NCBI GenBank assembly: GCA_036397395.1
Contig: DASWIZ010000038.1
Span: 1-31,601 of the forward strand
DNA: 31,601 bases
Reading direction: 5' to 3'
Source: Minisyncoccota bacterium
GTDB taxonomy: Bacteria; Patescibacteriota; Minisyncoccia; Minisyncoccales; UBA10102
The first letter of the stretch is position 1. The number at the start of each line of letters is the position of its first letter. Made by a program: the position numbers and the translations under genes. The notes under the pieces are model-generated. The model saw only the letters and a program-made list of their open reading frames with translations, made no database searches and was not told the DNA's origin. Below, in pieces: positions 919-24,628 of the stretch.

Positions 919-967
919 ACTTGTTCAAAGTATAGCATATTTCCCGCAAAGGATTTATAATACCCTA

Positions 968-3900
968 ATGCATCGAATTCTCGTTGTAGCAACAGTCTTG
1001 TGCGGCGTAACTCTTCTTGCCCTGCAGGTTTTTGTGCTTGGAGTTTTCTTTTTTTCATTGCGTACAGCGCAAGCCGCTCCTCCGCCGTGCGACGGCACAT
1101 GGAATACTCCCGGGCAGTACGACTGCGTTGTGCCGCCCGGAGTTACTTCAATCGATGTTGAAGTAATGGGTGCCCAGGGAAGTCATCTTGGAGGAAATGG
1201 AGGAGCGGTAAGTACCGTGCTTTCCGGGCTTACGCCAGGCGAAACGCTCCATCTTTTTGTTGGGGGCGAAGGATCTGGCGGGGGAACTACCATTCCTGCT
1301 GGCGGTTTCAACGGCGGAGGCGATGGTGGAAGCGGGCCCGGCGCATTTGCCTATACCGCTCACGGAGGCGGAGGCGGGGGCGGTTCCGACATACGCCGGG
1401 GCGGCAGCGCGCTAGCCGATCGTATCGTGGTCGCCGGAGGAGGAGGCGGAGGCGGAACCAACTATTTCGCTCCTTCCGGACTCGGTGGCGAAGGAGCCTA
1501 CTCAAACGGAGAAAATGGACTGAATGGACAATTCTGTCCACCCCTAGGCTCAAGGGATGGCGGTTGTGGTCACGGAGGCGGAGGCGGAACGCAAGGGAGT
1601 GGGGGAACAGGAGGAACAAGGGGAGTTGGCGGTATCCCGGGAGGCGCATGGGGCAACAACGGTATAAGCGGCTCCGCTGGCGTTGGCGGCAAGGGTGGCG
1701 ATGGTGTTGGCGGTTCCAATAGTGGTCTTTCGGGAGGCGGCGGAGGCGGGGGTTGGTACGGCGGCGGCGGCGGCGGATCAGGAGGTGCGGCGACCACTGC
1801 CGTTGGCTCAGGCCAGCCAGGACACGGAGGAGGCGGCGGCGGCGGATCTAGCTTTGTAAACCCCGCGATTGGCAACAATACGGTTTACACAAATGGGTTT
1901 CGGCTCGGCAACGGCAAAATCATCATTACCTCCCCCTCGAAGTATGCTGCCCCAACAGCTGATTCCATTACCATACCGCCTGGTTGGTACAACGGAAATT
2001 TTCAGGTAAACTATACAGCTTCCGGCGGTTTATGTGAACTGTGGACAAAAGACGGGTCTGATCCCTGGACAAAAAGGGCTGACGTGACTTGCGGCGCAAA
2101 TAAAACGGCCGCCGTTCAAGTTCCCGCGTGGTGTAGTACAACAGGGGTTGGCCAATGCGGAGTGCGTGTTGTGGCAAACCCAGGACCCGCGCCCCAGCAA
2201 GTTTTTTACTTCACGGGGGGGCCGCAGCCCTGGACCGTGCCTCCCGGAGTTACCGAGATACAAATTGATATACGAGGCGCGGAGGGAGAATCCAGCTTTG
2301 TAAGTAACGGCTATGCCGCTGATTCTGGGCCGGCAGGCAAGGGGGGGCGCGTACAGGCAACCATTCCCGTTACTCCACTCGAAATCCTTGAACTTTACGT
2401 AGGCGGAAAAGGTTGGGGCACAGGAAACGGATGGAATGGAGGAGCAAGTGGAGGAGCGGTTATAGGTGGGGCCGGTACCGGAGGAGGCGGTTCCGACATA
2501 CGCCGGGGCGGAAACGCGCTAGCCGATCGTATCGTGGTCGCCGGAGGAGGAGGGGGAGCTGGCAGAGGACTTAACGCTGGCGGCGGAACTGGAGGAAATG
2601 GAGGAGGGGCGTTTAACGCCGCGGATGGACAAATAGGCGGAAAGTTTGCTGGTAACCCTGGTGGAGGCGGGGGAGCAGGAACACTAACAGGAGGAGGCAA
2701 TGGGGGCTTGTCAGGCGGGTTTCCGTTCGGTTACGGCGATATGGGAACATTTGGAAACGGGGGCGCCGGGGGTTCGCACGTCTTTCCTCCTCCCGCATCA
2801 TTTTTTTCCATACCCGGAGGCGGAGGCGGAGGCGGATATTACGGAGGCGGAGGCGGGGGAATGGGCGCGTATGATGTTGGGGACCCTTACGGAGCTGGCG
2901 GAGGCGGAGGCGGAGGCGGATCCAGCTACTGCGATCCCGATCCCGCTGTATGCGGCGGCGTAACGCACGCGCAGGGCTACCAAGGAGGCAACGGCCAGAT
3001 TATTGTGAGCTATATTGTGTCGGGTGCTGGCCCGTCAGTGGAAGGCTTTGCGGATATGGATTTTGAGGCTCCCACCATCGCCAGCTTCACTGCCACAGAC
3101 GGCGTAACCACGGGAGACGTAAACACCCCTCTTGCGGCAGACACTCCCTCCATTACCCTCGCATGGGCAGGCAACGACGCTCCCGGAGGCTCCGGGCTGG
3201 ATCACTACGAAGTATGGCGCAGTCCAGACGGAATGGGAGGCTGGACTAAGATAAGCTCAAACCTGCCTCCCGCCACCACCACCTTCTCTGACGCTCCCGG
3301 AAGCGGAGACTGGTGGTATGGCGTGCGCGCCCTAGACAAGGCCCTGCCTTCTGGCAACTGCATTACCGAAGCCGGCGGCCACTCGTGCGGAGGAGTGGGG
3401 TCAGACGCGTTTGACCCCCGCGCCGTGGTAGGCCCCATCATCGTGCAAATCAACGATCCTCCCAAAGTGGATGCCGGGGGAAACCAAACCATGGACTTCC
3501 CCGGCGCCATTACGCTTGACGGCGCCGTAACAGACGACGGCCTTCCCAACCCTCCCGGAGCGGTAACCACCCTGTGGAGCGTGGTAAGCGGCCCCGGGGC
3601 CGTTACCTTTGCGGACCCCGCTTCCATAGACACGACCGCCTCCTTTACCGTGGAGGGTGTGTATGTGCTGCGCTTGGAGGCGAACGACGGCAAGGCTTCC
3701 GCTTCAGACGAGATTACCATCGGCCCCACGCCTTACGGGCTGGTGCCCTGCGGGGTGGACCGGAACGACCCGAGCACGCCGTATGACGAAACAGATGCAT
3801 GCACGTTTAATCACGTCTTTCTTTTGCTCTGGAACGTGGTGAACTTCGCGCTATGGAAACTGGCGCCGCTTCTTATTGTCATTATGGTGGTGCTTTCCGG

Positions 3901-4084
3901 CGTTATTATGTATTTCCAGCTGGGCGACGTAAATACTTTGGTGCTGGTAAAACGCATTTGGCGGTACGTTGGCATTGGCGTGCTTGTGCTGTTATTTTCC
4001 TGGCTTGCGCTAAACTTTTTCCTGGGCATTTTAGGTTTTAACATAAACATCTTTGGCCAGTGGTTTCAGATAAACCTTAATTAA
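968..4084 (+). CDS. Large secreted, membrane-anchored glycine-rich surface protein. It has two Gly-rich beta-type domains, an FN3-like domain, a PKD/Ig-like domain and a C-terminal two-helix hydrophobic hairpin.
   Basis: N-terminal signal/TM segment (VVATVLCGVTLLALQVFVLGVFFF). Two copies of the module VPPGVTxI..V.GAxG...GGGGGSDIRRGG(S/N)ALADRIVVAGGGGG. FN3-like stretch YEVWRSPDGMGGWTKIS..WWYGVRALD. PKD-like stretch VDAGGNQTMDFPGAITLDGAVTDDG...VEGVYVLRLEANDG. The C-terminus holds two predicted TM helices (LAPLLIVIMVVLSGVIMYF and VGIGVLVLLFSWLALNFFLGILGF). A TATAAT at 951-956 lies just upstream. Confidence 0.7.
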   Translation: MHRILVVATVLCGVTLLALQVFVLGVFFFSLRTAQAAPPPCDGTWNTPGQYDCVVPPGVTSIDVEVMGAQGSHLGGNGGAVSTVLSGLTPGETLHLFVGGEGSGGGTTIPAGGFNGGGDGGSGPGAFAYTAHGGGGGGGSDIRRGGSALADRIVVAGGGGGGGTNYFAPSGLGGEGAYSNGENGLNGQFCPPLGSRDGGCGHGGGGGTQGSGGTGGTRGVGGIPGGAWGNNGISGSAGVGGKGGDGVGGSNSGLSGGGGGGGWYGGGGGGSGGAATTAVGSGQPGHGGGGGGGSSFVNPAIGNNTVYTNGFRLGNGKIIITSPSKYAAPTADSITIPPGWYNGNFQVNYTASGGLCELWTKDGSDPWTKRADVTCGANKTAAVQVPAWCSTTGVGQCGVRVVANPGPAPQQVFYFTGGPQPWTVPPGVTEIQIDIRGAEGESSFVSNGYAADSGPAGKGGRVQATIPVTPLEILELYVGGKGWGTGNGWNGGASGGAVIGGAGTGGGGSDIRRGGNALADRIVVAGGGGGAGRGLNAGGGTGGNGGGAFNAADGQIGGKFAGNPGGGGGAGTLTGGGNGGLSGGFPFGYGDMGTFGNGGAGGSHVFPPPASFFSIPGGGGGGGYYGGGGGGMGAYDVGDPYGAGGGGGGGGSSYCDPDPAVCGGVTHAQGYQGGNGQIIVSYIVSGAGPSVEGFADMDFEAPTIASFTATDGVTTGDVNTPLAADTPSITLAWAGNDAPGGSGLDHYEVWRSPDGMGGWTKISSNLPPATTTFSDAPGSGDWWYGVRALDKALPSGNCITEAGGHSCGGVGSDAFDPRAVVGPIIVQINDPPKVDAGGNQTMDFPGAITLDGAVTDDGLPNPPGAVTTLWSVVSGPGAVTFADPASIDTTASFTVEGVYVLRLEANDGKASASDEITIGPTPYGLVPCGVDRNDPSTPYDETDACTFNHVFLLLWNVVNFALWKLAPLLIVIMVVLSGVIMYFQLGDVNTLVLVKRIWRYVGIGVLVLLFSWLALNFFLGILGFNINIFGQWFQINLN
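1381..1447. repeat. Near-identical ~67-bp direct repeat, copy 1, inside the Gly-rich gene (encodes GGSDIRRGGSALADRIVVAGGGGG)
   Basis: cggttccgacatacgccggggcgg..gcgctagccgatcgtatcgtggtcgccggaggagg recurs at 2488-2554 with about 3-5 mismatches. Confidence 0.8.
2488..2554. repeat. Near-identical ~67-bp direct repeat, copy 2, inside the Gly-rich gene
   Basis: Same sequence as 1381-1447, with aaac in place of cagc and a divergent 3' end. Confidence 0.8.
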
Positions 4085-4146
4085 CCATAATTCGCGCTCT
4101 ATTTTGCGCTTGCGAGAGTACGAGTTGCAACACGCCGTTCCCCGAC

Positions 4147-4512
4147 TTATTTTTTCTTCTTTTTATCGTTGAGTTGTTTGTCGATAATATTGAGTACCTG
4201 TTCAAGCGTAACTTCTTTTGAAGGCAGAATTTCCTCTTTGTTGCCTTTGTGTTTATGGTGAGGAAACGTTGGGACTGTTCGGTGGTGCGGCGCGTTATCC
4301 CAGCGACAGACAAGTTTACCGCTATGAGTTTGCCAGTGGTAGGAATACTTTGTTTCTGTTTTTGTTGTGAGTTCGCGGATATACAGAAAAGAGGTGCCGC
4401 GCAACGTTGCTTTCGCAGAAAAAACCTGGATATCTTCTTCGTCAACAAAATGAAGAATATCCAGGCGTGAAACAACTTTGCTTTTGCGGAGAAGCTCAAT
4501 TAAGTGGTACAT
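4147..4512 (-). CDS. Hypothetical protein with a paired-His motif (RWDNAPHH...FPHHKH) and a lysine-rich tail. Second gene of a two-gene operon.
   Basis: 121-aa ORF that directly abuts the stop of the upstream minus-strand gene (4512/4513). No confident family assignment. Confidence 0.4.
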   Translation of the reverse strand: MYHLIELLRKSKVVSRLDILHFVDEEDIQVFSAKATLRGTSFLYIRELTTKTETKYSYHWQTHSGKLVCRWDNAPHHRTVPTFPHHKHKGNKEEILPSKEVTLEQVLNIIDKQLNDKKKKK

Positions 4513-4803
4513 TCAGAACTTCTGGTAGCGTTTATGCCATTTCTCGTATGCTTCGGAAAGTCCTTTCCAGACGATATAATCATCCCACAACTCAAAGTTT
4601 TCTTTCTTTTGGGACTTTACTTTTTTCTCAAATTGAGAAAATGAAATTTTGTATTTCGATTCGAGAACCTGCATGTGCCGTTCGTATTCTTTCATCTTTG
4701 CAAAAACAACGCTTCTCAATATGCCCGTGAGGTATTCTTTGGGCTGGGGAGTTAATTCCGTTACCCATTTAGGAAGAGTATAAGAAAAATTACGCTGCGC
4801 CAT
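4513..4803 (-). CDS. Hypothetical small protein (96 aa), first gene of a two-gene operon. Possible TA-like pair.
   Basis: The ORF is contiguous with 4147..4512. Residue composition is protein-like. No recognised domain. Confidence 0.4.
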   Translation of the reverse strand: MAQRNFSYTLPKWVTELTPQPKEYLTGILRSVVFAKMKEYERHMQVLESKYKISFSQFEKKVKSQKKENFELWDDYIVWKGLSEAYEKWHKRYQKF

Positions 4804-4904
4804 ATGCGGCTATTATACATCAGCGCCGATTTCGCGTCAACTTGCGGATTGTGACTTCCGATGGCAAAGGAGCCAAAAGCTAAAAACAAACTAGCCCCTT
4901 CCTT

Positions 4905-5171
4905 TTGACTAAGGGGGGCTTGGCACTAAGCCTTGCCCCCGAAACTTTTATGGATACAGCTCAAAAAGCGCAACTCGAAAATATCAAGGAAAACAAAAAA
5001 CTGGCCCAGTTGAATAACGATGGGCCTTTTATCGCGTTTCTTGGGTTTCTTTTATTTGGGATAGGGTTTACGAACACGTATGGGATTTCTTTAGGCATTC
5101 TTATTACAATGGCATTCGCGCTTTTCGCGTTTTTTGGCATTTCCTTCCTTGTTCGTATTGCCGGCGGTTAA
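4905..5171 (+). CDS. Small membrane protein with two TM helices
   Basis: 88-aa ORF. The C-terminal half (FIAFLGFLLFGIGF...ILITMAFALFAFFGISFLV) forms a hydrophobic hairpin. A stem-loop at 4889-4915 overlaps the start codon. Confidence 0.45.
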   Translation: MTKGGLALSLAPETFMDTAQKAQLENIKENKKLAQLNNDGPFIAFLGFLLFGIGFTNTYGISLGILITMAFALFAFFGISFLVRIAGG

Positions 5172-5264
5172 AGCTAGATTGTAATAAATACGTTTGCCAG
5201 AATACGAGCTTCAGCGCACGTTGCCCAAAGTTACTTTGCTTTTCTCCGCACGAACTCCATAAAA

Positions 5265-5988: not shown

Positions 5989-6582
5989 ATGCAGGTCACA
6001 GTCGGATCACAACGAAAACAATTTCACATTCCTGGTTGGTCCCTTATCCTTTTTGCCATAGTGGCAATCCTGGGTGCTGCGTATGGCGGCATGCAGCTTA
6101 CTCCTCTTTTTGAGAGCGCCATTGCTGCTGACACGCAGCAGACCACAAACCTAGCTCCCGAGGTAGCCCCGGCACCCCAAACCCAACTGGAGCAGTCCGT
6201 CCCGCCAGTATCTGTGCCGGCAAACCGGTCCACCTCGAGGATCGAGGTTCAACAACCGGTATTCCAGGGACGCCCTGCCCCCAGTGCGGCCTTTCCGCAA
6301 CCCGATGGTTACTACATCGGACTTGGGAAGAGCGCATTCGGAAATCCAAATGTGCGCGGGTATGGCACGGTACTGGAATATTTTGGGGATGTTAATGTTC
6401 TGGCTGTTGAAGAGGTAAAAATGCAAGACCTCGGTTTCAATAGTGTGAGCCAAACTAATATGCTCAAGATTCAATATCTGGTTAAAGCCAATGGACGCGT
6501 CAAAAGCTACGTCGTAACTATCAGGAGCACTCAAGCTGGCGTATGGGTTGACCATGTAGGCCCCGGGCAACTCACGCTATAA
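5989..6582 (+). CDS. Membrane-anchored secreted protein (N-terminal TM, ~155-aa extracytoplasmic domain). Possibly a VirB8-like component, which is speculative.
   Basis: Strong SD ggaggtgg 9 nt upstream of the ATG. TM segment SLILFAIVAILGAAYGG. Followed by the terminator hairpin at 6608-6635. Confidence 0.5.
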   Translation: MQVTVGSQRKQFHIPGWSLILFAIVAILGAAYGGMQLTPLFESAIAADTQQTTNLAPEVAPAPQTQLEQSVPPVSVPANRSTSRIEVQQPVFQGRPAPSAAFPQPDGYYIGLGKSAFGNPNVRGYGTVLEYFGDVNVLAVEEVKMQDLGFNSVSQTNMLKIQYLVKANGRVKSYVVTIRSTQAGVWVDHVGPGQLTL

Positions 6583-6635: not shown

Positions 6636-6687
6636 TACTTTTACATATATTCTTGTGTTTCTTTTGAGAGATGTTTATAATTATATA

Positions 6688-8790
6688 ATGCCAACAAAAA
6701 AGATTTTTCTCTCTTTGTTTCTTGGAGTTAGTATTTTTGCTCTGCTTGCAGCTCCGTTGCAGGCGTCTGCATGTTGGGCGATATTTCAATGGGCTTGTGA
6801 TATCGGTGGCAATCTTGTAGAAGACATAGCTCGTTTGATTGTATCTGCGGTCACCATTACTACTGGCCTTATTTTCTTTTTGGTTGCTGGTGTTACCAAC
6901 TGGATTATTACGACTCTTATAAATGTTGGCGTTGCACCAGGGGTTGGGCCGCAGTTTGTTACAGACGGATGGACGTTTTCGCGGAACTTTGTAAACATAT
7001 TCTTTTTGTTAATCCTTGTTTTTATCGGCCTTGCCACTATTTTACGCCTGCGCGAGTACGAGCTGCAAAAAACTCTGCCGCGGCTTATTGTTGTAGCGTT
7101 GCTGGTAAACTTTAGCGGCTTGCTGGTTGGCTTTTTGGCGGATGTTGGGAATATTATCACAGTATTCTTTACCCAGAATATTACAGGAGCTCCCGGCGCG
7201 GGTTTGGGTTCAAGTGCTTTCAGGCAGATTTTCAATGCAGGGGGCGATGCTACCACTCAAGCTTTTGCTAATGCTGGCGATCTTGCATCGGGATTTGCGG
7301 CTGCGCTTGCCATAGGAGCCGCCCTTGGGTTCTTTTTTATATTTGCCACTATTGCGTACCTGGCAATTGCTTTAGTATTTTTCTTGCGGCTGGTTATTTT
7401 GTGGGTGCTGGTAATTTTAGCGCCGTTTGCGTTCTTGTTTTCTATATTACCCATAACCAGAAAGTGGTGGAATCAATGGTTAGACGCGCTTATCCAGTGG
7501 AGTTTTATTACCGTGCCTTTGGCCTTTTTTATGTGGCTGGCAAACAACGTCTTGGCAAATCCAATCTCTAGCTTGAGTAGCGGGCCTTCCTTAACTGGCA
7601 ATATTTCTGGATGGTCAACTCTTATTGGTTTAATGATGTCGCCGTTTGTGGCCATTGTGCTGTTGTTTATCGGCCTTGGCATGTCCGCTTCCATGTCCGG
7701 GTTTATCCGCGGCGGCCTGCGCTTCGCCCGTCATGCCGGTGCCGTCGGCGTCGGCGTCCTGGGCGCCAACCTTATCCGCGACAAGTTTCTTGCGCGTTCA
7801 GCAAAAATGCAGCGCCTTGCAAATAGAATGGAAACATTTTCGTCTCGAGGCATGAGCGGAAGAAATGTAGTTGGCCAGACTCTTGGAAGAGCAGGTGCGC
7901 CACTTGTACGGTGGGCGGGCAGAAAAGTGGGATCTGAAACCCAGACAAAAGTTGCTGAAAATATAAAAAAGACGGAAGAGCAAGCAAAGAAGATGTCAGC
8001 CCAGGAAAAAGCCTCGAGGCTTCGCGGGAATATCGGGCTTGACGAAAAAATTGGCATATTAAACGTTGCGGCGCAACAAGGCGAGAGTGATGACGTTATT
8101 CGCGCCGGATTTAGCGAGCGAAGAATTATGGATGTGTACAACTCGGCCAGAAAAATAAACCAACATCAGGATATTCAGGCGGCCTTTCCTCATTTTGTTA
8201 CTGATGATGAACTTCAACAATCTCGCTTTGCTCGCGATTACAACCGCGCGCATCCAGGAGCTAACTTAAGACAAAATCAGGTTACCGCAACACAAGCAGC
8301 TACTGTTACTGCTGCGCAAGTAGTTGATGAGCGTATTCGTATGTACAGTCGAATGAAGCCTGAACGAGTAAAACAGATATCCGAAGGTGCTTTCAATAAC
8401 ACTCCTGGAGTAGGTGGCGCAGTGGGGCCAGGCCAAGAAGCTATGGACAGCATGCTGCTTGGGTTTAATGGCGCGCGGTTTGGCAATGTTGCTTCCGGTG
8501 ACAATGGGCAAGAAGCTGTACAAAACCTTCGCAACCGACTGCTATGGCATGCGACGAATACCACTTCTCCAACTCGTGTTAATCCCGCAGATCCTCGTAT
8601 AGCAGCAATTGTCGGGAGGGCGCCAGGTAGCGCTGGACCAGCTGACCCGGGCGCAGGACTTATGGCTCAACAAGGAATGACGGCAGCAGAAGCAACCGAA
8701 AGAGCACAAATGCGTATCTGGCTTATAAACAATGGAAACGAACCCCTTGCAAGATATCTGCAAGGAACAGGGGGACAAAATCTTTTCTAA
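6688..8790 (+). CDS. VirB6/TrbL-like polytopic membrane protein with a ~330-aa C-terminal hydrophilic domain
   Basis: ATG 6688 gives MPTKKIFLSLFLGVSIFALLAAPLQASA, a signal peptide. The GTG at 6655 is less likely. The first ~380 aa carry at least 6 hydrophobic helices. The C-terminus is polar and Ala/Gln-rich. The gene sits in a locus with VirB3-like and VirB4 genes. Confidence 0.5.
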   Translation: MPTKKIFLSLFLGVSIFALLAAPLQASACWAIFQWACDIGGNLVEDIARLIVSAVTITTGLIFFLVAGVTNWIITTLINVGVAPGVGPQFVTDGWTFSRNFVNIFFLLILVFIGLATILRLREYELQKTLPRLIVVALLVNFSGLLVGFLADVGNIITVFFTQNITGAPGAGLGSSAFRQIFNAGGDATTQAFANAGDLASGFAAALAIGAALGFFFIFATIAYLAIALVFFLRLVILWVLVILAPFAFLFSILPITRKWWNQWLDALIQWSFITVPLAFFMWLANNVLANPISSLSSGPSLTGNISGWSTLIGLMMSPFVAIVLLFIGLGMSASMSGFIRGGLRFARHAGAVGVGVLGANLIRDKFLARSAKMQRLANRMETFSSRGMSGRNVVGQTLGRAGAPLVRWAGRKVGSETQTKVAENIKKTEEQAKKMSAQEKASRLRGNIGLDEKIGILNVAAQQGESDDVIRAGFSERRIMDVYNSARKINQHQDIQAAFPHFVTDDELQQSRFARDYNRAHPGANLRQNQVTATQAATVTAAQVVDERIRMYSRMKPERVKQISEGAFNNTPGVGGAVGPGQEAMDSMLLGFNGARFGNVASGDNGQEAVQNLRNRLLWHATNTTSPTRVNPADPRIAAIVGRAPGSAGPADPGAGLMAQQGMTAAEATERAQMRIWLINNGNEPLARYLQGTGGQNLF

Positions 8791-10560: not shown

Positions 10561-10577
10561 GCCAGGCGGTTTTTTGG

Positions 10578-10607
10578 AGTTTGGGCGGATTTGGGTTGAT
10601 TTGGGTT
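10578..10607. repeat. Three tandem ~10-bp direct repeats (g/a)tttggg(c/t)(g/t)g upstream of the 10625 gene
   Basis: gagtttgggcg / gatttgggtt / gatttgggtt, read directly. Confidence 0.5.
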
Positions 10608-10624
10608 TGTGGTACACTGGTTTT

Positions 10625-11080
10625 ATGCGTATGCCAAATGAATCCCTCCACTCGTTACATAAAAGGTACATTCGGGGAACACAACCAAAAGCAATTGTAG
10701 AAAACAAAAAGGTTTTCTTGTGCTATCTTACGGCTGCTGTCCATAAGGGCGGTGGCTTCTCGACGCGCAATGTGTATATCACTACGAAAGTGCTCAAACA
10801 CATGTACGACAAAAAGCCGGCCGAAGAATACGATTTTCTGCTTGTACACTTGCCCCAGCTTATAAAGTACCCGGATCATATCTATGAAAATAGAAATGGC
10901 AAACGAGGCAACATTTGTTTTACCAAAAGTATAAAAAACCAGCAATACTTTTGTTCGCTGGAAGATGACACGGAAGCACAAGAGATTATGATAGTAACCG
11001 CTTACCGCATTCGTGATAAGAAGTACCTCGAGAAATATAGCCTGTTGTGGAGCTGGAGGGACGACGCCCCCTCATCGTAG
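10625..11080 (+). CDS. Hypothetical protein. Possible PBECR-like (Barnase/EndoU/RelE-like) nuclease domain.
   Basis: ATG 10625 (MRMPNESL) is in frame with the track ORF. The motif VYITTKVLKHMYDKKPAEEYDFLLVHLPQLIKYPDHIY...KRGNICFTK...IMIVTAYR resembles the phage-associated PBECR nuclease family. This assignment is tentative. Confidence 0.35.
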   Translation: MRMPNESLHSLHKRYIRGTQPKAIVENKKVFLCYLTAAVHKGGGFSTRNVYITTKVLKHMYDKKPAEEYDFLLVHLPQLIKYPDHIYENRNGKRGNICFTKSIKNQQYFCSLEDDTEAQEIMIVTAYRIRDKKYLEKYSLLWSWRDDAPSS

Positions 11081-11626: not shown

Positions 11627-11920
11627 ATGTTTACGCTTGATACGAATATCCTCGTGTACTACGCTGCAGGTGACGGAAAAGTTACCTCTTTTGTTTTTGA
11701 GCGGCTGAAAGAAGGCAAGATTTTTTATGTACCCACAATTGTTGTGGTAGAATTTTTCTCTTTTCCTGCTCTTGGGCCAAAAGATAGTGAGTTGTTTGAA
11801 TATCTTTTTTTACATCTTGACGTAACCGCTCTAGACGTTCGTATCGCCAAAATTGCTGGAGATTTGCGAAAAAGATACGGCCTAAATCTTGTCAAGAGGG
11901 TGGGTGTTGTGCTAACATAA
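11627..11920 (+). pseudogene. PIN-domain (VapC-like) toxin gene, 3'-truncated where promoter module copy B begins
   Basis: Starts MFTLDTNILVYY, the PIN Asp box. A conserved Glu is present (VVVEFF). The reading frame then runs into the repeat element (..KRYGLNLVKRVGVVLT*) before the 3rd and 4th acidic PIN residues would occur. At 97 aa it is short of the ~130 aa expected. Confidence 0.5.
11889..11918 (+). promoter_or_regulatory. Promoter module copy B (TTGTCA, 18 nt, TAACAT)
   Basis: aaatcttgtcaagagggtgggtgttgtgctaacataag. Confidence 0.5.
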
Positions 11921-13606: not shown

Positions 13607-14086
13607 TCCTACGAATTACGAATTCGCGCGAATATACGAATACCCTATTTTATGACGCAATCAACGCTAAGGAGAAACGACTTGATCCATCCGGAGCTAA
13701 GCTATCAAATCGTAGGAATACTCTTTGATGTTTCTAACGAACTTGGGCACGGTTACCAAGAAAAGCATTATCAAAAAGCGATAGCAGCGGCTCTTCAGAA
13801 AGCAGGTATCGCGTACACGGAGCAAGCGCCTGTTCAGATAAACTACAAAGGCGAAAAAGTGGGCATCTACTTCCTTGACTTCCTTATAGAAAATAAAATT
13901 GTCCTTGAAATTAAAAGAGGTGAGTACTTTTCCAAAACTAACCTAAAACAAGTTTCTGGCTATTTAAAAGCAACTGGTTTACAATTAGGGATAGTGGCGA
14001 ACTTTACCGCCAATGGTTTGAAGTTTAAGAGAATCGTCTGCGCTAATCAATATTCGTAAATTCGTATTTATTCGTAATTCGTAGGA
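13607..14086. mobile_element. 480-bp cassette bounded by imperfect ~36-bp terminal inverted repeats (outer 17 bp perfect: TCCTACGAATTACGAAT) and carrying a GxxExxY gene
   Basis: Left end is tcctacgaattacgaattcgcgcgaatatacgaata at 13607-13642. Right end is tattcgtaaattcgtatttattcgtaattcgtagga at 14051-14086. The reverse complement of the right end matches the left end over the outer 17 bp. The cassette starts one base after the virB3-like stop and ends 3 bp before the virB4 N-terminal ATG. Confidence 0.6.
13652..14059 (+). CDS. GxxExxY-family protein (PD-(D/E)XK nuclease superfamily)
   Basis: The motifs are readable in the 135-aa product (..GYQEKHYQKA.., ..LDFLIENKIVLEIKRGEYF..). Confidence 0.65.
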   Translation: MTQSTLRRNDLIHPELSYQIVGILFDVSNELGHGYQEKHYQKAIAAALQKAGIAYTEQAPVQINYKGEKVGIYFLDFLIENKIVLEIKRGEYFSKTNLKQVSGYLKATGLQLGIVANFTANGLKFKRIVCANQYS

Positions 14087-14089
14087 TTT

Positions 14090-14782
14090 ATGGCAAGTTC
14101 TGCTCAAGAATTTTTAGAATTCCAAGATGTCCGCGAAGGCACCATGGTGTTGAAAGACCGCTCCATCCGGGGCATTATGTTAGTGTCGTCCACGAACTTT
14201 GCCTTAAAGTCGCAGGAAGAACAAGACGCCATTGTGTACCAATTCCAAAACTTTTTAAACTCGCTGGATTTTTCCATTCAAATTACCATTCAGTCGCGGC
14301 GGCTGAACATTACCGGGTATATTGACCGATTAAAAGCGCTGGAACAAGAACAAACCAATACCTTGCTGCGCGAGCAAACGGCAGAGTACCGCAAATTCGT
14401 GGAAACGCTTATCGCGGGAGGTTCCATTTTGGCGAAAAACTTTTTTGTGGTAGTGCCGTTTACTCTTATAGAGGCGAATCCCGACGCAAGCCAGACAACC
14501 GCGGGAACGCTGTTTAGGTCAAAGCCAAAGCTGGTGGGAAAGTTAACGGATGACGAGTTTGAGCGCATGAAAACCCAGTTGTGGCAGCGTATGGAGTTTG
14601 TTGCGCTGGGCCTGCGCCGCATGGGCTTGCACGTGGCTCCGTTAAATTCAGAGGAAATTATTGAGCTGTTGTGGACTTGGTACCACCCGGAAGACGCGGA
14701 AGTCGGCTACTATCCGGAAATTCCCCCAGAGATGCTGCAGCAACGAGTGCAAAAGAATGGCCCCTCGACAAACTCGAGGTAA
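14090..14782 (+). CDS. virB4: VirB4/TrbE N-terminal domain, encoded as a separate 230-aa ORF
   Basis: TMVLKDRSIRGIMLVSSTNFALKSQEEQDAIVYQFQNFLNSL parallels the VirB4 N-terminus (LLEDGSIMSIARIDGVAFELEEIE..). It ends at TAA 14780-14782. The remainder of VirB4 continues in another frame from 14797. Confidence 0.55.
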   Translation: MASSAQEFLEFQDVREGTMVLKDRSIRGIMLVSSTNFALKSQEEQDAIVYQFQNFLNSLDFSIQITIQSRRLNITGYIDRLKALEQEQTNTLLREQTAEYRKFVETLIAGGSILAKNFFVVVPFTLIEANPDASQTTAGTLFRSKPKLVGKLTDDEFERMKTQLWQRMEFVALGLRRMGLHVAPLNSEEIIELLWTWYHPEDAEVGYYPEIPPEMLQQRVQKNGPSTNSR

Positions 14783-14796
14783 AAACACACATACAT

Positions 14797-22725: not shown

Positions 22726-24066
22726 ATGATAAAAAAGATTTTGTTTGTTTTTGTACTACTCGCCGTTGTTGCCCCGATTTTCGCATTCGCCCAAATCAAC
22801 CTGAACCTGGATTACCCCACGTTCGGCGGCGTAGACCTGAACACCAACCAGAACCTAAACACCGTTGTCGCCTGGCTGTACTATTTCTTTGTGGGCATCG
22901 CCGGCCTTGCAGCTTTTGTCATGATCGTGTGGGGAGGCATACAGTGGTTAACCTCGGGAGCCATCCCATCCCAAGCTTCTGAAGCCCGCGACAAACTGCG
23001 AGCCGCCATACTGGGACTTCTTCTTGTTTTAGCCTCGTTCCTTATCATACAGGTCATAAACCCCCAGCTTACCCTGTTAAACCAGCCCGGCCTAACCCAG
23101 TTCTTTGGCACAAACCCAACCCTTGACCTCCCAAGCTCCGGCGGCGGAGGATTTAGCGGCCCTGCCGGAGTAACAGCTCCTGGCATATACCTCTGTAGAG
23201 ATATTAACTGTACTTGCACAAATCCGGGCAACTGTGAAGAAGCAGTAGACTTTAACAACCCCATAAATCCTGGAGGGAACGACTATGTATACATTGACCC
23301 CGCAGCATTTCCTGGCGGAGCAATCTTTGACCTTGATAATTCAGCTCCTATATTAAACTGGGGAGATGAAGTAAGCGCTATTGGTATTATCGGCAACTCG
23401 GCGGTTCGCGCGAACAGAGACCAAAACTTTACAGCCATGGGTATTTGTTTTAACGGCGGAGTCGCAGATCTTAAAAAGTATCTTATGCAGGAAGATGTCT
23501 TTTTTATGGATGATGACTGGAATGACGCAATACACAGTATAGCTTTTTTCCCTCTGGGAACTCCAAATGGATGTCAAGACCCTAATCTTACCTTAGATAA
23601 GGATGCTCCGACTCCAGGAGTATCACACTTTCGACCCCAGCCAGCAGTATACCTTATCAATAAAACAGGATACGGAACAAGTGGTAATCCGCATTGGACT
23701 CCAGTTAATTACTACTGGCCAAACAGTACGGCTGATAGATTCAACCCTACACATAATAGTATTGACTGGCCGTCCCAATACAACTCTGTCGAACTTTCTG
23801 TATGGATAACCAGTGCTTCTGTCTGCGGTTCTGCAGGAAACGAAACATGTGCGGTAAAGTTCTATGAAGACACCGACATTATTACATCAGACACGGCTCC
23901 CGACTCTACTCACCAGACTATTTGTTTTAACCAATCAATGCCAGATCTTCTATTGTATACACTCCCACCCGCCCCAGACCTTCACCAGTCAGGGGTTGTA
24001 AAACAAGTTCGAGCCATACCGGCTTCTCAATGCCCACCCGCTATACACGCCCAAGTACAAGGCTAA
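22726..24066 (+). CDS. Secreted protein with an N-terminal VirB2/TrbC-pilin-like domain (signal peptide plus two TM helices) fused to a ~330-aa Cys-containing extracellular domain
   Basis: Signal peptide MIKKILFVFVLLAVVAPIFAFAQ. Two helices follow (VVAWLYYFFVGIAGLAAFVMIVWGGIQWL and ILGLLLVLASFLIIQVI). The C-terminal domain has at least 10 Cys and N/P/T-rich loops. Confidence 0.45.
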   Translation: MIKKILFVFVLLAVVAPIFAFAQINLNLDYPTFGGVDLNTNQNLNTVVAWLYYFFVGIAGLAAFVMIVWGGIQWLTSGAIPSQASEARDKLRAAILGLLLVLASFLIIQVINPQLTLLNQPGLTQFFGTNPTLDLPSSGGGGFSGPAGVTAPGIYLCRDINCTCTNPGNCEEAVDFNNPINPGGNDYVYIDPAAFPGGAIFDLDNSAPILNWGDEVSAIGIIGNSAVRANRDQNFTAMGICFNGGVADLKKYLMQEDVFFMDDDWNDAIHSIAFFPLGTPNGCQDPNLTLDKDAPTPGVSHFRPQPAVYLINKTGYGTSGNPHWTPVNYYWPNSTADRFNPTHNSIDWPSQYNSVELSVWITSASVCGSAGNETCAVKFYEDTDIITSDTAPDSTHQTICFNQSMPDLLLYTLPPAPDLHQSGVVKQVRAIPASQCPPAIHAQVQG

Positions 24067-24166
24067 CCCCTTACCTTAATGACAACACGGCGGGCGGGGT
24101 TCTTCGTCCACGCTTTCTAAAACCAGGGAGGTGGAATTTTGGTTGGTTTTGTGGTATGGTTGGGTA

Positions 24167-24628
24167 ATGCAAGAGATTATCCAGAAAAACCAAAAAGAAT
24201 TGCAGGAAATCTTCCAAAGGGGAGGGGTGGTTTTGGCATACCTGTTCGGCTCGCAAGTTCGCGGCACAACCCATCATTTCTCTGATATTGATATTGGCTT
24301 GTTGCTCGACAAGGATATCTCCAAGGACGCATATTTTGACAAAACCTTGGAGCTTGGGGGCAAGCTTGAGCATATCTTTGGCACCGAACATGTTGACGTG
24401 GCGGTCTTGAACCAGGCAAAACCTTTCTTGCGCTATCAAGTTATTTTTGGCGGCAAGCTTTTGTTTGAGAAAAATGCGGCTATAAGAATATTTTATGAAA
24501 ACAACGTAATGAAAGAATACCAAGATACCAAACATATTCTTCAGTTCTCGCTCAACGCCATGAAAGAAAGAATAAAGAGGGGTTCCTTTGGCATTAATCC
24601 GCGATCTGCTTATGGCCCCAGAAGTTAA
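24167..24628 (+). CDS. Minimal nucleotidyltransferase (MNT/Pol-beta superfamily) protein. Likely an antitoxin-type gene with no intact HEPN partner.
   Basis: LFGSQVRGTTHHFSDIDIGLL is the GS..D.D nucleotidyltransferase motif. The start is ambiguous: ATG 24167, TTG 24143 or the track GTG 24131. No downstream ORF follows. Confidence 0.6.
   Translation: MQEIIQKNQKELQEIFQRGGVVLAYLFGSQVRGTTHHFSDIDIGLLLDKDISKDAYFDKTLELGGKLEHIFGTEHVDVAVLNQAKPFLRYQVIFGGKLLFEKNAAIRIFYENNVMKEYQDTKHILQFSLNAMKERIKRGSFGINPRSAYGPRS

Follow-up and report, generated by a model that had tools for sequence, protein, structure and literature searches.

The gene at positions 968 to 4084 of contig DASWIZ010000038.1, from a Minisyncoccota bacterium, encodes a 1038-residue protein whose last ~115 residues, judging by profile comparisons, belong as a divergent member to the VirB2-like T4SS_pilin superfamily (PF18895) of type IV secretion systems (T4SS). 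The whole stretch of 31,601 nucleotides (nt) that was analysed is called the window below, and its closest genome matches are Candidatus Wildermuthbacteria and Paceibacterota. We lean towards the view that the protein is a T4SS-associated, pilin-anchored and exchangeable surface protein that contacts the host cell. Much of bacterial diversity belongs to the Patescibacteria; the few of them in culture live as epibionts attached to host bacteria, and the others are presumed to be host-dependent as well. In Southlakia epibionticum, the one species tested, a T4SS and small VirB2-like pilins are essential for epibiotic growth, the essential pilin array being SEML1_0014-0019 (PMC10633639). A survey from 2025 found no adhesin for the Patescibacterial T4SS (PMC12102498), and a pilus has been suspected in these systems, yet demonstrated in none of them (PMC12857230).

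The open reading frame (ORF) is laid out as follows, with protein positions given in amino acids (aa) and model confidence as the predicted local distance difference test (pLDDT).

968 to 4084, + strand: the whole gene, from the ORF listing, its translation and an ATG start; a predicted secreted protein of 1038 aa with a glycine-rich/Ig-like ectodomain and a C-terminal pilin-like hairpin
968 to 1075, + strand: predicted signal peptide, aa 1-36, a long hydrophobic core followed by A-Q-A (hydropathy)
1088 to 1945, + strand: glycine-rich domain 1 (GRD1), aa ~41-326, 40% Gly, recognised by its similarity to GRD2
1946 to 2182, + strand: unclassified Cys-rich module, aa 327-405, with 4 Cys, matched by BLASTP to several copies in the homologue P0130
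2183 to 3037, + strand: glycine-rich domain 2 (GRD2), aa ~406-690, Pfam PF12810 ALK_LTK_GRD
3074 to 3337, + strand: FN3-like beta-sandwich, aa 703-790, residues 18-105 of AlphaFold2 model m590f3e45a528, pLDDT 84-94
3437 to 3724, + strand: PKD/Ig-like beta-sandwich, aa 824-919, from PF22352 and modelled strands (model residues 139-234)
3734 to 4081, + strand: C-terminal pilin-like domain, aa 923-1038, AlphaFold2 model m052fb33c3f77, pLDDT 85

A preliminary description of this DNA had listed five elements in a 1038-residue protein, namely a signal, two glycine-rich domains, an FN3-like domain, a PKD domain and two C-terminal helices. All five are confirmed by the ORF, Pfam, BLAST and the AlphaFold model, but the list had overlooked the Cys-rich module between the two glycine-rich domains; the full order is leader, GRD1, Cys-rich module, GRD2, FN3-like, PKD and C-terminal hairpin domain. 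This module set is common to the homologues P0001, P0002, P0003, P0005 and P0130.

The C-terminal domain is made up of a GLVPCG...C...H loop (C928, C945 and H949), helix 1 (aa 948-983), the connecting loop LGDVNTLVLVKRIWRY and helix 2 (aa 988-1021). By hydropathy, the hydrophobic segments extend over aa 952-989 and 991-1026, the connecting loop carries K995, R996 and R999, and the C-terminal tail NINIFGQWFQINLN is uncharged. The helix pair had been described as bracketed by cysteines, a term that has to be abandoned, as C928 and C945 both precede helix 1 and no Cys follows helix 2. The extra-membrane loop GLVPCG..C..H is strongly conserved in the family of proteins that share this hairpin. When the profile of this family was aligned by hhalign with the PF18895 relatives of the pilin encoded from position 22726 of the window, a match of 93.6% (E=2.2e-7) was obtained, with both helices and the loop between them in register. 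Furthermore, 19 of the 39 aligned family members match PF18895 (best E=5e-7), as do 11 of 56 full-length members (best E=2.6e-6), and one of the 39 matches the TrbC/VirB2 family PF04956 (E=3.8e-4), a family that is also matched by the PF18895 pilins of Saccharibacteria (Wang et al. 2023, Table S2). Across the ORFs of the window, the hidden Markov model (HMM) of the hairpin family found a single other match, the 22726 ORF (E=1.4e-4). The resemblance to the VirB2-like hairpin at the N-terminus of the 22726 protein, which had been proposed from the general architecture, is therefore borne out by profile methods, and these profiles show that the hairpin family is homologous to the VirB2-like T4SS pilins of PF18895. 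The predicted architecture is likewise that of PF18895, with a leader at the N-terminus and a hydrophobic hairpin of two helices joined by a short basic loop. A lipobox reading of LVPCG was considered and rejected: the motif sits here after ~920 ectodomain residues, and in the standalone forms described below it lies downstream of the AxA site and not at the end of the hydrophobic core.

The window is a segment of a Patescibacterial chromosome, and this context links the gene to a T4SS, whose chromosomal locus begins with it. The following genes of the window carry this argument.

5989 to 6582, + strand: conserved membrane-anchored protein of ~200 aa, encoded behind the fusion gene in loci of relatives (L011 and L012, by tblastn)
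6655 to 8790, + strand: VirB6/TrbL-like T4SS channel protein (PF04610, E=7e-9), with orthologues in L001, L004, L011, L015 and L017
13187 to 13606, + strand: PrgI/VirB3-like protein (PF12666, weak), 64-68% identical to the L001 and L004 orthologues
14090 to 14782, + strand: TraC-like protein upstream of VirB4; the L001 orthologue has PF26593 TraC-like, and identity to orthologues is 75-77%
14671 to 18711, + strand: VirB4/TraC-type ATPase with an intein (Pfam; LAGLIDADG endonuclease, intein at nt ~15564-17571)
22726 to 24066, + strand: second pilin-type gene of the locus, PF18895 at aa 42-111 (E=1.3e-9, 38.4 bits)

The 968-4084 gene is thus encoded beside the T4SS core genes virB4, virB6 and virB3, which is the context of PF18895-type pilins. 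The T4SS proteins of the window are 62-86% identical to those of L001, L004 (a metagenome-assembled genome, MAG, of Candidatus Wildermuthbacteria) and L017. In all related loci with sufficient flanking sequence the hairpin gene holds one place, after ksgA. The gene order hairpin gene, ~200-aa gene, (pilin), VirB6, ..., VirB3, TraC-like and VirB4 is found in the window and in L001, L004, L011, L012, L015 and L017, and ksgA adjoins the hairpin gene in L001, L002, L004, L007, L012, L014 and L017. Identity between the hairpins of syntenic loci falls as low as ~40%, and the shared order therefore reflects conserved synteny and not just a set of close strains. The tie of this protein to a T4SS, put forward in the preliminary description, is in this way backed by synteny across many loci; a search for related loci with a narrower alignment of the hairpin (A1) retrieved five. 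The product of 5989-6582, which has one N-terminal hydrophobic segment and no match in a Pfam scan, has a counterpart of similar size at the same position in L001, L015 and L017, and is an unannotated conserved component of the T4SS locus. Homologues of the 22726 pilin domain mostly measure 110-140 aa, and pilins of ~120-130 aa from Wildermuthbacteria and other Patescibacteria predominate among them.

The slot occupied by the 968-4084 gene holds proteins of very different sizes in related loci.

L004: 143 aa, standalone hairpin
L002: 148 aa, standalone hairpin
L001: 663 aa, one GRD
Window: 1038 aa, two GRDs
L007: 1064 aa, two GRDs, different hairpin subtype
L017: 1280 aa
L012: 1578 aa, with the same TumE toxin pair after it as in the window

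The metagenome contig Ga0326597_10122200 (positions 1-960, L009) carries a chimeric gene. Nucleotides 273-654 of the contig match the final part of the L007 ectodomain, from a Paceibacterota MAG, at 95.6% identity, and from nt 618 onwards the contig is 85.5% identical to window positions 3736-5225, a stretch that takes in the hairpin and the genes downstream of it; the overlap between these matches coincides exactly with the GLVPCG codons. At the other end of the gene, aa 1-23 of the window protein recur unchanged in P0005, a 'glycine-rich protein' of a Candidatus Paceibacterota MAG that has the same leader, yet a different body and a different hairpin subtype, and the leader DNA (nt 978-1035) shares 86% identity with L007. 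Because L009 switches at GLVPCG and the leader is kept between different bodies, leader and hairpin can be regarded as recombination handles. Taken together, these alignments show a cassette-like variation of the ectodomain between the leader and the GLVPCG-hairpin.

The hairpin family itself turns out to be very large. An exhaustive profile search with the hairpin yielded 6868 cluster representatives at E<=1e-3, 1487 of them at E<=1e-10. A word-index search with the last 123 aa returned four proteins of 140-173 aa that are 59-66% identical to it; three of these short relatives consist of leader and hairpin domain only, while the 173-aa one has ~55 other residues upstream and no leader. Among the best 154 family matches, the hairpin is at the extreme C-terminus in 150 and the protein exceeds 260 aa in 123, and since most of these best matches are long proteins with a C-terminal hairpin, such fusion is common in Patescibacteria. 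The preliminary description had presented the joining of a pilin-like hairpin to an adhesin-like ectodomain as unusual; this is true relative to classical VirB2 pilins, but in the hairpin family itself the arrangement is the norm. The upstream parts of 56 long members contain Ig-like repeats (20 members), fn3 (6), PKD (5), M23 peptidase (4) and C39-like peptidase (2) domains, together with a lectin fold and a GRD. Pilin-ectodomain fusions were not described in the literature searched, whose coverage excluded most subscription-journal papers, and this branch of the T4SS_pilin superfamily is accordingly very large and undescribed in the searchable literature. PF18895 at its present threshold misses about half of the hairpin family, which widens the known range of VirB2-type pilins, so far described only as small peptides. 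In L015 (540-7347), two tandem M23-peptidase proteins of 1142 and 1108 aa each end in the same hairpin domain, and the pair holds the slot upstream of the ~200-aa gene, a PF18895 pilin and the VirB6-like gene. These M23-hairpin proteins may replace the VirB1 hydrolase, which is absent from most of these systems.

As regards topology, hydropathy delineates a hydrophobic stretch at aa 1-34 and A-Q-A at aa 34-36. The latter is presumed from its sequence to be a signal-peptidase I site with cleavage near aa 36, and at the equivalent position the leaders of relatives end in V-Y-A or V-Q-A. The 14 cysteines after the leader are arranged as 7 closely spaced pairs, a pattern typical of an extracytoplasmic protein. 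A cytoplasmic ectodomain, which together with a hairpin unlike any pilin or TrbC family would, by the preliminary description, have refuted its proposal, is not what these features predict: the leader with its AxA, the Cys pairs, the extracellular domain types (GRD, FN3-like and PKD), the basic loop (K995/R996/R999) and the uncharged tail all point to an ectodomain that is probably extracellular. Before assembly, VirB2 and TraA pilins have both termini outside and their loop in the cytoplasm. We propose that the 968-4084 protein would be exported by Sec, with cleavage of the leader near aa 36, and that its C-terminal helices would be embedded in the cytoplasmic membrane, the two ends of the hairpin facing outwards and the K/R-rich loop facing the cytoplasm. 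With both hairpin ends outside, the ~890-residue ectodomain would be exposed on the cell surface. The pilin domain would then couple this ectodomain to the T4SS, either as a minor or tip subunit that bears the adhesin in the VirB2-like pilus, or docked at the base of the pilus, and the ectodomain would contact the host cell and be swapped among strains by recombination between the leader and the GLVPCG-hairpin handles. We also infer that the protein could be incorporated into a pilus, that its ectodomain could bind a receptor, and that the protein could mediate adhesion and be physically coupled to the T4SS or the pilus.

The main rival to a pilin-anchored host-contact protein is that the two-helix tail is a plain membrane anchor, of pilin descent and no longer engaged in any interaction with a T4SS or a pilus, which we judge unlikely and nevertheless the most serious competitor. 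Several results weigh against the host-contact proposal, and part of them are what a mere anchor would lead one to expect. PF18895 gives only 13.1 bits (E=0.11) with the whole protein and, although no Pfam family scores higher with the C-terminal 123 aa taken alone, its 18.1 bits (E=0.0028) also stay under the gathering score of 26.6 bits. A direct BLASTP comparison between the hairpin and its N-terminal counterpart in the 22726 protein fell short of significance (E=0.97). Foldseek against the PDB with the hairpin model returned nothing at E<3, with the T-pilus VirB2 at rank 2-3 (E~4), a non-discriminating result; fold searches were uninformative, as can be expected since the query is a helical hairpin, and a PDB search with the hairpin profile gave a sole, spurious match (E=0.17). 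At 1038 aa, the protein is well outside the ~100-185 aa of the PF18895 pilins, a size that would suit a repeating filament subunit. An N-terminal load of ~900 aa is awkward on a filament subunit and impossible on every subunit of a VirB2-type helical filament, which on steric grounds leaves only the role of a minor subunit or one at the tip or base, and the head-to-tail cyclisation by which VirB2/TrbC pilins mature is impossible for this protein. In L005, L006 and L008, which are distant loci of the family, no T4SS gene was found nearby with the window proteins in the DNA available. Finally, the family is very large, with its 6868 representatives, and the M23 and C39 peptidases that serve as ectodomains in some of its members fit general surface display as well as a pilus role. 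Against a plain anchor stand the fixed position of the gene, which borders the T4SS locus in divergent genomes, and the standalone versions of 140-148 aa in the same slot: these consist of leader and hairpin, carry no load that would need an anchor and resemble ordinary pilins; furthermore, the conservation of the GLVPCG..C..H loop exceeds the needs of an anchor.

According to a second alternative, GLVPCG and the hydrophobic tail form a cleaved sorting signal, in the manner of sortase, exosortase or myxosortase substrates, and the ectodomain is released or attached to the envelope. An invariant P-C in a conserved motif just upstream of hydrophobic segments would suit such a signal, as would the recombination breakpoints at GLVPCG, and GRD homologues in Bacteroidota end in the sorting domain PF18962 of the type IX secretion system (T9SS), so that the C-terminus is the usual site of a sorting module in proteins of this kind. 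The tail is nevertheless homologous to pilins and, in contrast to known sorting signals, which have a single helix, it consists of two long helices and has no basic C-terminal end; for these reasons we hold a sorting signal to be improbable. Among the 30 Pfam-scanned ORFs of the window (31.6 kb of the genome), none resembled a sortase, exosortase or rhombosortase, and in the standalone versions the motif comes directly after a normal signal-peptidase site.

Comparison with known systems helps to place the host-contact proposal. With the Patescibacterial PF18895 pilins the 968-4084 protein shares a Sec leader followed by a two-helix hairpin, homology at the profile level, a chromosomal T4SS locus beside VirB6, VirB3 and VirB4, and a strain-variable sequence. 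However, those pilins total ~100-185 aa (~125-185 in Southlakia), while the present protein adds ~890 residues before the hairpin; unlike them, it carries the extra GLVPCG..C..H loop and scores under the gathering cut-off, and whereas they are encoded in a tandem array, the fusion gene has its own fixed slot next to ksgA. The VirB2, TrbC and TraA pilins have in common with it a helix-loop-helix membrane hairpin and a leader-bearing precursor, but none matches it directly in sequence, the cyclisation or N-acetylation of a short peptide is inapplicable, and the organism here is monoderm. The T4SS adhesins and tip proteins, namely the VirB5 family and PrgB of Gram-positive systems, would have the same role as that proposed here, being T4SS-encoded surface proteins that contact the target cell, and both the place of the 968-4084 gene within its locus and the adhesin-like types of its domains agree with this; no sequence or domain similarity to them was detected in the 968-4084 protein with Pfam and NCBIfam. 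PrgB is anchored to the wall by LPXTG and VirB5 is soluble and helical, neither being a pilin fusion. Minor type IV pilins of the TcpB/CofB type follow the same logic, with a pilin module that enters the filament and a bulky binding domain displayed at its tip, but their pilin fold and their machine, the type IV pilus, are unrelated, and their addition is C-terminal to the pilin module. As for the ectodomain, bacterial proteins with PF12810, such as T9SS-sorted proteins of Bacteroidota and 'tail fiber domain' proteins of Hymenobacter, share the GRD, often with PKD, Ig or fn3 domains in large secreted proteins; they end in the T9SS domain PF18962 or in other modules, whereas the 968-4084 protein ends in a pilin-like hairpin.

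A more general proposal, which we advance tentatively and with more doubt than conviction, is that C-terminal pilin fusions are the missing host-contact parts of the Patescibacterial T4SS, each bearing an exchangeable ectodomain on the tip or base of the pilus, and that cassette exchange sets the host to which the cell can attach. If this were true, the ectodomain would be an adhesin (GRD/FN3/PKD) or, elsewhere, an M23 cell-wall hydrolase in place of the absent VirB1, and the swap of cassettes would parallel the swapping of receptor-binding proteins in phages. The hairpin family provides specific candidates for the means by which the Patescibacterial T4SS recognises a host; the 968-4084 gene is one of thousands in it, and it is the class, not the single gene, that supplies these candidates.

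Besides the exchange of whole ectodomains, the gene contains an internal repeat.

1373 to 1451, + strand: repeat copy 1, encoding GGGGSDIRRGGSALADRIVVAGGGGG, within GRD1 (self-comparison)
2480 to 2558, + strand: repeat copy 2, encoding GGGGSDIRRGGNALADRIVVAGGGGG, within GRD2, identical to copy 1 at 74 of 79 positions (94%)

The near-identical segment of 67 bp reported in the preliminary description is real and constitutes the core, identical at 64/67 positions, of this longer repeat of 79 nt. Both copies are in frame 0 and are spaced by 1107 nt (369 codons). The repeat encodes the most conserved peptide of the GRD, and one might therefore suppose that purifying selection on this peptide, combined with codon bias, is sufficient to account for it without recombination: the peptide GG(A/S)SDIRRGG..LADRIVVAGGGGG is kept in P0001, P0002 and P0005 and holds several invariant columns of the GRD alignment. 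The codons make this explanation very improbable. The same codon is used at 21 of the 23 identical residues of the tract, while 7.1 are expected from the codon usage of the gene (exact P=1.6e-9) and while only 40 of the 105 identical residues of the two GRD modules outside the tract share theirs; moreover, the two copies agree, in register, at three different Arg codons and at a CTA codon for Leu. The window copies are identical to each other at 63 of 66 nt (95%), whereas the same motif in other genomes shares 38-41 of 66 nt (58-62%) with them, and the two GRDs of the L007 gene have no comparable nucleotide tract. As codon sharing and nucleotide identity exceed what conservation of the motif would give, the repeat is a tract of gene conversion or of another recent event at the DNA level, and we conclude that the two GRDs of the 968-4084 gene exchanged a 79-nt tract by gene conversion. 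Unequal recombination across the repeat would delete exactly 369 codons, in frame. The number of GRD copies among relatives is 0, 1 or 2; no repeat-mediated deletion or duplication was seen among the sequences found, where the three related metagenome contigs all lack the GRD region.

Turning to the modules of the ectodomain, the two glycine-rich domains are 43% identical across 113 aa (BLAST, E=1e-9), or at 128 of 259 positions in a global alignment. PF12810 covers GRD2 at aa 433-675 with 35 bits for a cut-off of 24.5 (E=1.9e-8, profile positions 12-219 of 243). GRD1 alone has zero Pfam matches; it is similar to the GRD at the N-terminus of P0130, in which PF12810 is present. In the solved ALK/LTK structures this domain type forms a polyglycine-II helix lattice, and neither the sequence of the whole protein nor a profile of the GRD matched anything in the PDB. 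The Cys-rich module gave no match in a Pfam scan and occurs one or more times in relatives, namely in P0130 (several copies), P0001, P0002, P0003 and P0005. For the FN3-like region, which has no Pfam match, Foldseek against the PDB retrieved among its best hits FnIII tandems of titin, FN3-like modules of CbhA and FN3 of neuroglian (E 5e-7 to 6e-6), and the Pfam fn3 model (PF00041) had no match at E<=1, either with the whole protein or with aa 691-830 alone. Behind the sandwich comes a Cys loop that is modelled with low confidence, CITEAGGHSC (aa 798-807). PF22352 (K319L-like PKD) covers aa 836-918 with 31.2 bits for a cut-off of 27. A scan with NCBIfam produced only partial matches of the PKD region to unrelated large enzymes, far under their cut-offs.

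The base composition of the gene is uneven. G+C at third codon positions (GC3) is 0.63-0.72 in the 3' third (window positions 3038-4081, comprising the FN3-like, PKD and hairpin domains), compared with 0.43-0.54 in neighbouring genes and ~0.5 in the GRDs, which suggests that the 3' third may have been acquired by recombination from a relative of higher G+C content. The high G+C content of the gene as a whole was considered as a sign of foreign origin and discarded, as it is mostly due to the Gly codons of the GRDs and GC3 is raised only in the 3' third. At the other end, the ATG at 968 is preceded at a distance of 6 nt by a perfect TATAAT (window positions 956-968), and only 49 nt separate the gene from a divergent DUF3800 gene; from this spacing, the transcript may be leaderless or have a very short leader.

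Several other observations concern the rest of the locus. The VirB4 gene contains an intein recognised by Pfam Intein_splicing and LAGLIDADG_3, and the L001 and L017 orthologues are contiguous across the insertion point. The 22726 protein is a fusion of reverse polarity, in which the pilin domain comes first and is followed by a Cys-rich extension of ~330 aa without Pfam match; orthologues of 349-441 aa are present in L001, L004, L015 and L017. This C-terminal extension would be extracellular if the hairpin has an N-out/C-out topology. In the window, nusA, tig, clpP and rny come after this second pilin gene. The T4SS locus is moreover crowded with toxin-antitoxin or otherwise selfish-looking genes (286-918, 4147-4803, 10574-11080, 11627-11920, 13652-14059, 18715-19278, 21250-22713 and 24131-24628), which comprise TumE and a 96-aa partner, four ORFs with a PIN domain, two DUF3800 genes, a PD-(D/E)XK nuclease, a PBECR nuclease and a nucleotidyltransferase (NTase). 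At similar places, L012 and L002 have TumE, AbiEii and NTase genes. Finally, positions 20218-21123 encode a 301-aa ORF without meaningful Pfam match, the N-terminal two-thirds of which are highly charged and rich in Arg, Glu and Gln, with hydrophobic segments near the C-terminus.

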